64,000 nt of DNA from NCBI RefSeq assembly GCF_041886205.1, contig NZ_CP169030.1; one strand, written 5' to 3'. The translations under genes and the position numbers were made by a program. Below are positions 57,204-57,886 of the stretch, piece after piece (position 1 is the stretch's first letter; each line of letters opens with the position of its first letter). The stretch comes from Escherichia coli (GTDB lineage: Bacteria; Pseudomonadota; Gammaproteobacteria; Enterobacterales; Enterobacteriaceae). The notes beneath the pieces were generated by a model, which worked only from the letters and a program-made list of their open reading frames with translations, ran no database searches and was not told where the DNA came from.

Positions 57204-57886
57204 TTACGCAGCCTCCGGTTCAAACCAGTTATCATTCGCGGCCCCCTGCTGCATGGCACGTTGCACGGCGGCCAGTCGTTGCTGTCCGGCACGGTGATAC
57301 TGTTCAAGCAGCTCGATACCGATATACCGGCGTCCGGACTGAAGGGCGGCCACGCAGGTTGAGCCGCTGCCTGCAAACGGGTCCAGAACAATCGCGTTCG
57401 GGTGTGTGAAGGTCTCAATCAGCGGTTGCAGGCTGGTAACGGGCTTTTCCGTCGGGTGATGGCGGTTGCCTGAATATTTCCAGCCCAGCACGTCGGGCAA
57501 TGGCTTCTGAGGCAGCGCCGGACGTCCTTTTGCCAGGATGTAAGCACATTCGTGACGGTAAGCGACATACGCAGATTTGGATGTGTAGTTTTTGGTGAAG
57601 ACCAGGTGGCCAACCACGCTGAATCCGGCGCGTTTCCAGGCTGCCATAAAGCGGTCAATGCGGTTCCAGCCATAGAAGCTGACCATTAACGCGTTTTTTT
57701 CAGCACGCAGTACATCTCATTACAGGCAGGTTGCAGCCAGTCATCGTTAACGTCACCGGCAATGGTGCGCCCGGAACGGTCACGGAAGCCCACCAGGTAA
57801 GGCGGGTCGGTTAATATGAAATCAATGGCGTTATCAGGGATACGCGCCATAACATCGATGCAGTTACCGAGGACAAAACGGGACAT
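57204..57886 (-). pseudogene. Orphan beta-class DNA N6-adenine/N4-cytosine methyltransferase, split by frameshift in an A7/T7 tract (57694-57700)
   Basis: N-terminal ORF carries motif IV TDPPY, C-terminal ORF carries motif I DPFAGSGST; the two ORFs overlap by 1 nt and one extra A would fuse them. Confidence 0.75.

Follow-up and report, generated by a model that had tools for sequence, protein, structure and literature searches.

Why should the catalytic motif and the cofactor-binding motif of one DNA methyltransferase be encoded, in a stretch of 64,000 nucleotides of Escherichia coli DNA (contig NZ_CP169030.1, hereafter referred to as the window), by two open reading frames (ORFs) that meet at a run of seven A? 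The initial annotation of this locus put forward three readings, i.e., slipped-strand phase variation, a fixed inactivating mutation, or a homopolymer sequencing error. The locus, a methyltransferase pseudogene of the M.EcoGIX/PRK13699 family (57204-57886, minus strand), spans 683 nt instead of 684. The layout originally described, with motif IV in the N-terminal ORF and motif I in the C-terminal one, was reproduced on the minus strand: the former (57686-57886, read from 57886 to 57686) encodes 66 aa followed by a stop (MSRF...TDPPY...CVLKKTR) and contains the catalytic motif IV DPPY (57797-57808), and the latter (57204-57686, read from 57686 to 57204) encodes 160 aa up to its own stop (MVSFYGW...DPFAGSGST...PEAA), including the AdoMet-binding motif I DPFAGSGST (57357-57383). 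The one-nucleotide overlap of the two ORFs at the A7 break was also confirmed, the premature TAA (57688-57686) and an ATG (57686-57684) having one base in common (TAATG); this ATG, which starts the 160-aa ORF, is the native Met68 codon of the full-length protein. The run itself (57694-57700, minus strand), located just ahead of the TAATG junction in the Lys-Lys codons, is exactly seven A long and is the site of the -1 deletion.

The insertion of one A restores a 227-aa protein (...CVLKKNALMVSFYGW...), in agreement with the methyltransferase of about 227 aa that had been predicted, and natural A8 alleles read in the same way, with KKN at the junction. A repair as KKD, with a G lost from AAAAAAGAC, was also considered and is wrong for the window allele, whose nearest intact relatives are A8/KKN. 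An A7 run by itself is not unusual in this DNA, since the window contains nine A7 and 13 T7 runs in total; what goes beyond chance is the coincidence of the break in one methyltransferase domain with an A7 run, together with a nearest intact allele that is one A longer at that point.

In the repaired protein, residues 21-201 of 227 correspond to Pfam PF01555 (N6_N4_Mtase; E-value 4.7e-36), a domain for which the 160-aa fragment by itself is labelled as well, and the repaired protein matches NCBIfam NF010253/PRK13699 end to end (protein 1-227, model 1-226) with 488.5 bits, the curated cut-off of this model being 244 bits. Its relatives of solved structure (CcrM, M.RsrI, DpnA, and M.MboIIA) are beta-class enzymes. 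DPPY at residues 27-30 lies N-terminal to FAGSGST at residues 171-177, and the beta-class label assigned beforehand was right, motif IV preceding motif I; the M.EcoGIX family is likewise described as beta class (PMC7736820). The orphan status holds as well, the neighbours being YubE, DUF1380, and other small leading-region genes, with no endonuclease. In the window copy, no single reading frame spans the two motifs, due to the break at A7 and to the stop at 57686-57688. Judged from its sequence, it is a pseudogene of the beta-class N6/N4 family and not a functional member of it, and its methylation activity would have been lost. The closest characterized relative can be recognized through plasmid pESBL-EA11 of E. 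coli O104:H4, whose methylase is identical to the repaired protein at 213 of 227 positions (94%, no gaps); since only one DNA methylase is annotated on pESBL-EA11, this is presumably M.EcoGIX.

The first point to be settled is whether the A7 state is real. Homopolymers are error-prone on some sequencing platforms, and the true plasmid might in principle harbor A8, the A7 being a sequencing or assembly error in the window assembly. However, the identical A7 allele is found in four finished plasmids from two countries (NZ_CP063154, CP061340, and CP061338 from human faecal samples in Australia, and NZ_CP076277 from a buffalo in Thailand), and in NZ_CP063154 and NZ_CP076277, i.e., the two records whose annotation of the gene was checked, PGAP labels it 'DNA methylase, frameshifted'. 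Its exact 66-aa product and its exact 160-aa product each occur on 28 contigs of public assemblies, and the 24 contigs whose DNA was read (from NCBI drafts, many Logan assemblies of public runs, and an ENA metagenome) are all A7, one of these contigs recurring in 17 samples. Moreover, A7 is always accompanied by the lineage-specific substitutions C54, C60, and T157, and an A8 form of that allele was never recorded. The probability left to such an error is negligible, and an error private to this assembly is excluded. The methylase family and the pseudogene of the window are, indeed, already in public records, the exact allele being annotated as frameshifted in RefSeq.

The comparison of the tract length across related plasmids, suggested at the outset, revealed a lineage that is uniformly A7 and a nearest intact allele (98% identical; e.g., that of pDA61218-116, WP_000086171.1) that is A8, its length differing from that of the window gene only by one A in the run. 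When 1.9 kb are compared, the sequences of the A7 lineage group closely together and diverge from the sister lineage by about 7.5%. Neither the 227-aa repaired product, in its N64 or D64 version, nor the A5, A6, A9, and A10 products in the background of the window allele were present among about 15 billion proteins. Likewise, no exact 88-nt A8 version of the window allele was found in 5,426 finished E. coli genomes, which were searched by megablast for exact matches to tract queries with 40-nt flanks round the run; the best matches to this query were, besides the four A7 plasmids, an intact mosaic allele of pHS4_3, which has C54 but R60.

The second of the three substitutions deserves attention. 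R60C (codon 60, TGC, 57707-57709) is specific to the A7 lineage and lies 9 nt upstream of the run, and at least 90% of the homologues, taken down to 74% identity, retain the arginine that it replaces (in EMYRVLKK). It is probably a second, damaging lesion, and, since the residue affected is nearly invariant, a revertant to A8 might be impaired as well. Among the three readings initially offered, the fixed inactivation is the one that stands, because of the A7-only lineage and of R60C; the sequencing error is rejected, and phase variation is not supported as far as the lineage of the window is concerned. Thus, the locus very likely represents a homologue of M.EcoGIX on an F-type plasmid that the loss of one base has inactivated, i.e., a fixed loss-of-function pseudogene.

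As a side observation, the intact A8 allele of pHS4_3 (NZ_CP142038.1, 1355-2038) is itself a mosaic: it has diverged strongly from the window over its initial ~100 nt and over a central block (around nt 345-393), and the segment containing the tract is nearly identical to that of the window. This mosaic points to recombination among methylase alleles, and, on this basis, C54 is older than the frameshift.

If the lineage of the window is locked, the same might not be true of the whole family, and the tract was compared across it. Both M.EcoGIX and distant homologues, like most of the family, carry AAAAAAG-AC (KKD), the junction of M.EcoGIX being CTC-AAA-AAA-GAC (A6-G, KKD); KKD is apparently ancestral, and A8 (KKN) would be a minority form derived from it by a G-to-A change (D64N). 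Of the E. coli records with the gene (about 4,500), about 80 have A8-type alleles, and yet, despite this scarcity, a considerable portion of the frameshifts in the tract comes from them. In the sister allele with S54 and R60, the intact A8 protein is found on at least 1000 contigs, the A6 product on 28, the A9 product on 6-9, and a 'KKTR' product, encoded by both A7 and A5G alleles, on 79. When the run is masked, one identical 670-nt gene haplotype of this sister allele carries A6, A7, A8, and A9, and the corresponding loci, interleaved with one another, are 0-10 differences apart over 1.9 kb. Further A7 and A6 cases lie on clearly different backgrounds, and A6-to-A5 changes occur in KKD alleles, so that the independent tract events (A5G, A6, A7, and A9) are at least ten. 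In finished E. coli genomes, the S54/R60 allele is A8 in all 64 of its 64 exact matches, and exact A6, A7, or A9 versions of it were not found there. As far as assembled sequences can tell, the A-run in the lysine codons is a recurrent slippage hotspot whose variants are rare. The pattern fits a mutational weak spot, worse in A8 alleles, and it fits no high-frequency switch.

It might still be argued that the A-run works as a reversible slipped-strand switch, with the methylase ON at A8 and OFF at A7, A6, or A9. In the window gene, the length of the run does set the frame (A7 out, A8 in), the four lengths found on a single haplotype and the recurrence of A7, A6, and A5G events on other backgrounds are what such a switch would produce, and the excess of frameshifts among the few A8-type alleles points in the same direction. 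The ON form of the window lineage, however, was found nowhere among the sequences searched (more than 24 contigs and four finished plasmids, all A7), R60C affects a nearly invariant residue of that very lineage, the 64 A8 matches out of 64 imply that OFF variants of the S54/R60 allele are rare, and most of the family, including M.EcoGIX, has the interrupted AAAAAAG. Besides, eight A are short for high-frequency switching in mismatch-repair-proficient E. coli. Switching would require both states within the lineage, whose assembled sequences are A7 only. A switch of this kind is therefore unlikely here, even though a minority of A8 copies may exist within populations of the lineage and some tract switching in the family is possible, given the instability of the run.

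The same holds for the function that the switch could serve. The trade-off with Mrr is documented (PMC7736820), and it can be imagined that a population of plasmids hedges between two kinds of recipients, whose restriction is either sensitive to methylation or dependent on modification (Mrr-type); this idea is as improbable as the switch itself. Equally doubtful is a narrower version of it, in which D64N (G to A) would have given a minority of IncF plasmids an uninterrupted A8 that serves as a contingency switch, with the window lineage locked OFF. If this were true, slippage during vegetative or conjugative replication would generate both ON and OFF plasmids, and the pool as a whole would survive recipients with classical restriction (favouring ON) as well as those with Mrr-type restriction (favouring OFF). 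In the literature, no reports of frameshifting or phase variation in a methylase of the M.EcoGIX family were found.

The comparison with phasevarions, such as the Type III mod genes of Haemophilus, Neisseria, and Helicobacter, leads in the same direction. The likeness consists in a simple-sequence repeat that shifts the frame inside a methyltransferase ORF and in the tract polymorphism among close relatives. Phasevarion tracts, however, are longer and undergo frequent, reversible switching in hosts whose mismatch repair is weak, with ON and OFF states within one lineage, whereas the tract described here has seven or eight A, its OFF variants are rare, and the lineage of the window is uniformly OFF.

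A fixed frameshift does not necessarily imply a silent gene, and two ways of retaining the activity were weighed against the preferred reading of a fixed loss of function. In the first, the full-length enzyme would be made through transcriptional slippage or through -1 frameshifting on G_AAA_AAA_C; in the second, the 66-aa fragment and a re-initiated 160-aa fragment would assemble. Slippage by -1 on the second Lys codon would yield exactly the product of the A8 allele, with the junction ...LKKNALMV..., and the overlap of the premature stop with the native Met68 ATG makes the re-initiation of the C-terminal fragment conceivable; moreover, the predicted hairpin promoter appears to be intact, as are the operon genes downstream. 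On the other hand, the 91 nt downstream of the run do not fold into a stimulatory structure (z -0.73, no better than shuffled sequences), inspection of the sequence upstream of the run and of the internal ATG disclosed no Shine-Dalgarno-like element, and the slippery site is only a partial one, the features of a programmed frameshift being lacking. Nor is the frameshifted layout conserved, the relatives being plain in-frame A8 or A6-G genes. A run of seven A is below the length needed for appreciable slippage of the E. coli RNA polymerase. As for the split enzyme, the break separates motif IV from motif I, nothing suggests the existence of an assembly module, and R60C is an additional lesion against residual activity. 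Both routes are very unlikely, and a residual full-length or split-enzyme activity would be speculative.

The genomic context of the locus is that of a conjugative plasmid, the window being colinear with an annotated IncFIA/IncFIB, MOBF, MPF_F plasmid. The tra genes are located at about 30-38 kb, followed by oriT/traM at about 39-40 kb; the leading region that follows contains, on the minus strand, psiB (46846-47283), a ParB-like gene (47335-49293), ssb (49647-50225), a small ORF similar to SAM-dependent methyltransferases (50992-51555), and an antirestriction gene. The methylase operon occupies 55.7-57.9 kb, just ahead of sopAB and ~17-18 kb from oriT. Downstream of the methylase, the same tightly packed operon continues on the minus strand with three intact genes, i.e., a YubE-family gene (56982-57203), a DUF1380 gene (56534-56968), and a 276-aa ORF (55704-56534). 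Since the leading-region genes past oriT, through the methylase, are all located on the minus strand, the plus strand is the transferred (template) one. The module has the same order as in pESBL-EA11, namely DUF1281, hairpin (annotated as a '103-aa ORF'), methylase (227 aa), YubE, and DUF1380.

The hairpin in question is predicted on the transferred (plus) strand directly upstream of the methylase (57887-58200, 314 nt). As single-stranded DNA, this segment is predicted to fold with -95.4 kcal/mol (z -6.7), and the homologous segment of pESBL with -91.8 kcal/mol (z -5.5). It is 95.3% conserved, versus 90-91% for the coding sequence, i.e., too conserved across the available alleles for a covariation analysis. 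A 2025 study (PMC12672017) reports that, in transconjugants, the M.EcoGIX operon is switched on by an ssDNA-promoter hairpin of a distinct type ('class 3'), conserved in F. The segment at 57887-58200 is probably this published class 3 promoter, and, according to the predicted fold, the promoter element upstream of the methylase appears to be intact. A scan for sigma-70 promoters and terminators between 56.9 and 59.0 kb disclosed no promoter-like site, no Frpo/ssi class-1 repeat is present directly upstream of the methylase, and an Rfam search at the gathering threshold over 40-64 kb gave no match at the methylase locus. With the upstream hairpin and the downstream genes intact, the operon as a whole would not be dead.

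The 103-aa 'hypothetical protein' that PGAP places over the hairpin, with an 'internal stop' in the A7 lineage, is probably no real gene. The idea that this 'internal stop' might represent a third lesion of a decaying module was dropped, the segment being conserved and predicted to form an ssDNA hairpin.

Near the start of this segment, a second variable homopolymer was observed, i.e., a minus-strand G7 (57923-57929) inside a small GGGCACC...GGTGCCC hairpin of the 5' leader. Among near-identical plasmids, this run is G7 in the window, G8 in NZ_CP063154, and G6 in NZ_CP076277 and pDA61218; most other alleles have the interrupted GGGGTGCCC, and some have G5.

On these grounds, a scenario can be proposed for the fixed loss of function. 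As shown by Fomenkov et al. 2020 (PMC7736820), M.EcoGIX modifies single strands promiscuously, placing m6A at SAY; the same work reports that the enzyme shields pESBL from the restriction of the recipient, that the entering strand is the apparent source of its expression, and that homologues are numerous in IncI1 and IncF plasmids. In intact relatives, the leading strand would thus enter the recipient, the hairpin formed on the single strand would act as a promoter, and the 227-aa enzyme would deposit m6A on the incoming single strand in the SAY context, so that the duplex would escape the restriction enzymes of the recipient. In the lineage of the window, replication slippage would have removed one A from the A8 run (codons Lys62-Lys63-Asn64); translation would stop after residue 63 and two frameshift-encoded residues, 66 aa in all, and the DPPY catalytic motif would be severed from the AdoMet-binding motif. 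The lesion would then have been inherited and fixed in a small, geographically spread lineage of IncFIA/FIB plasmids, and, since R60C was also gained at a nearly invariant position, the gene may be regarded as a decaying pseudogene. An active enzyme plausibly has a cost: plasmids with active alleles undergo a 10 to 10,000-fold restriction by EcoKMrr, and the survivors are mutated in the methylase gene (PMC7736820). Its loss may therefore be favoured in Mrr-type hosts, or it may be neutral where other anti-restriction genes suffice.

How far does the locus depart from what is already known? It shares with M.EcoGIX (pESBL and its IncI1/IncF homologues) the 94% identity over the repaired 227 aa, the beta-class motif order, the leading-region module with its orientation, and the prediction of a long ssDNA hairpin upstream; it differs in being split by a -1 frameshift and in R60C, and its parent allele is A8/KKN, whereas M.EcoGIX is A6-G/KKD. 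A more distant homologue of the same functional class, from another host and another plasmid, is M.BceJIII of Burkholderia cenocepacia (pBCA072), likened to it by published description: PMC7736820 presents it as a plasmid-borne beta-class enzyme, promiscuous for single-strand m6A at SAY. Ordinary homopolymer-frameshift pseudogenes resemble the locus in the single-base deletion in a short run, in the PGAP label 'frameshifted', in the lesion of a neighbouring gene (DUF1281, 384 nt), and in the damaging substitution; unlike them, the same run has been struck repeatedly here, in at least ten independent events. Overall, the locus is a real but ordinary pseudogene, and the fact that the A-run has repeatedly proved unstable is a curiosity of modest weight at the population level.

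The locus is also of interest through the family to which it belongs. A copy of the methylase is present in 3,372 of 5,426 finished E. coli genomes, and the family ranks among the commonest anti-defence functions of plasmid leading regions. Natural knock-outs such as the A7 lineage represent ready-made controls for the contribution of the methylase to plasmid spread, and the repeated loss at one A-run, together with the Mrr sensitivity of active alleles, hints at a balance between the costs and the benefits of promiscuous m6A.

Other features of the same region are worth reporting. Upstream of the methylase, the DUF1281 gene (58301-58780, minus strand, extending upstream to about 58990) has lost ~384 nt internally compared with pESBL and other IncF alleles; the remnant encodes 159 aa and is labelled incomplete by PGAP in relatives, and the deletion fits a local decay. 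Between about 59163 and 59762, an array of overlapping self-matches (87-91% identity) adjoins sopAB and is consistent with the sopC centromere repeats. The leading region also contains four repeats of ~540-660 nt, 88-95% identical to each other (42297-42951, 44820-45426, 50150-50850, and 53475-54016), each with an internal inverted repeat, which are similar to the class-1 ssDNA promoter elements (Frpo/ssi) found on F-like plasmids. Two RNAs match Rfam families at the gathering threshold, namely the sok antitoxin RNA of the hok/sok locus (45854-46025, minus strand, 92.6 bits) and AS-pc01 (53240-53339, plus strand, 98.9 bits), a family of antisense RNAs originally reported from pHK01. The methyltransferase-like ORF at 50992-51555 (minus strand), located between a DUF3560 gene and ssb, is intact and encodes a 187-aa class I SAM-methyltransferase-like protein with weak Erm/KsgA-like matches only. 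Elsewhere in public proteins, 280-aa fusions join a PsiB domain (PF06290) to the C-terminal ~79% of the methylase; each of these fusions was recorded on 63-72 contigs, and a deletion that joins psiB and the methylase gene would seem to have recurred in some plasmids.
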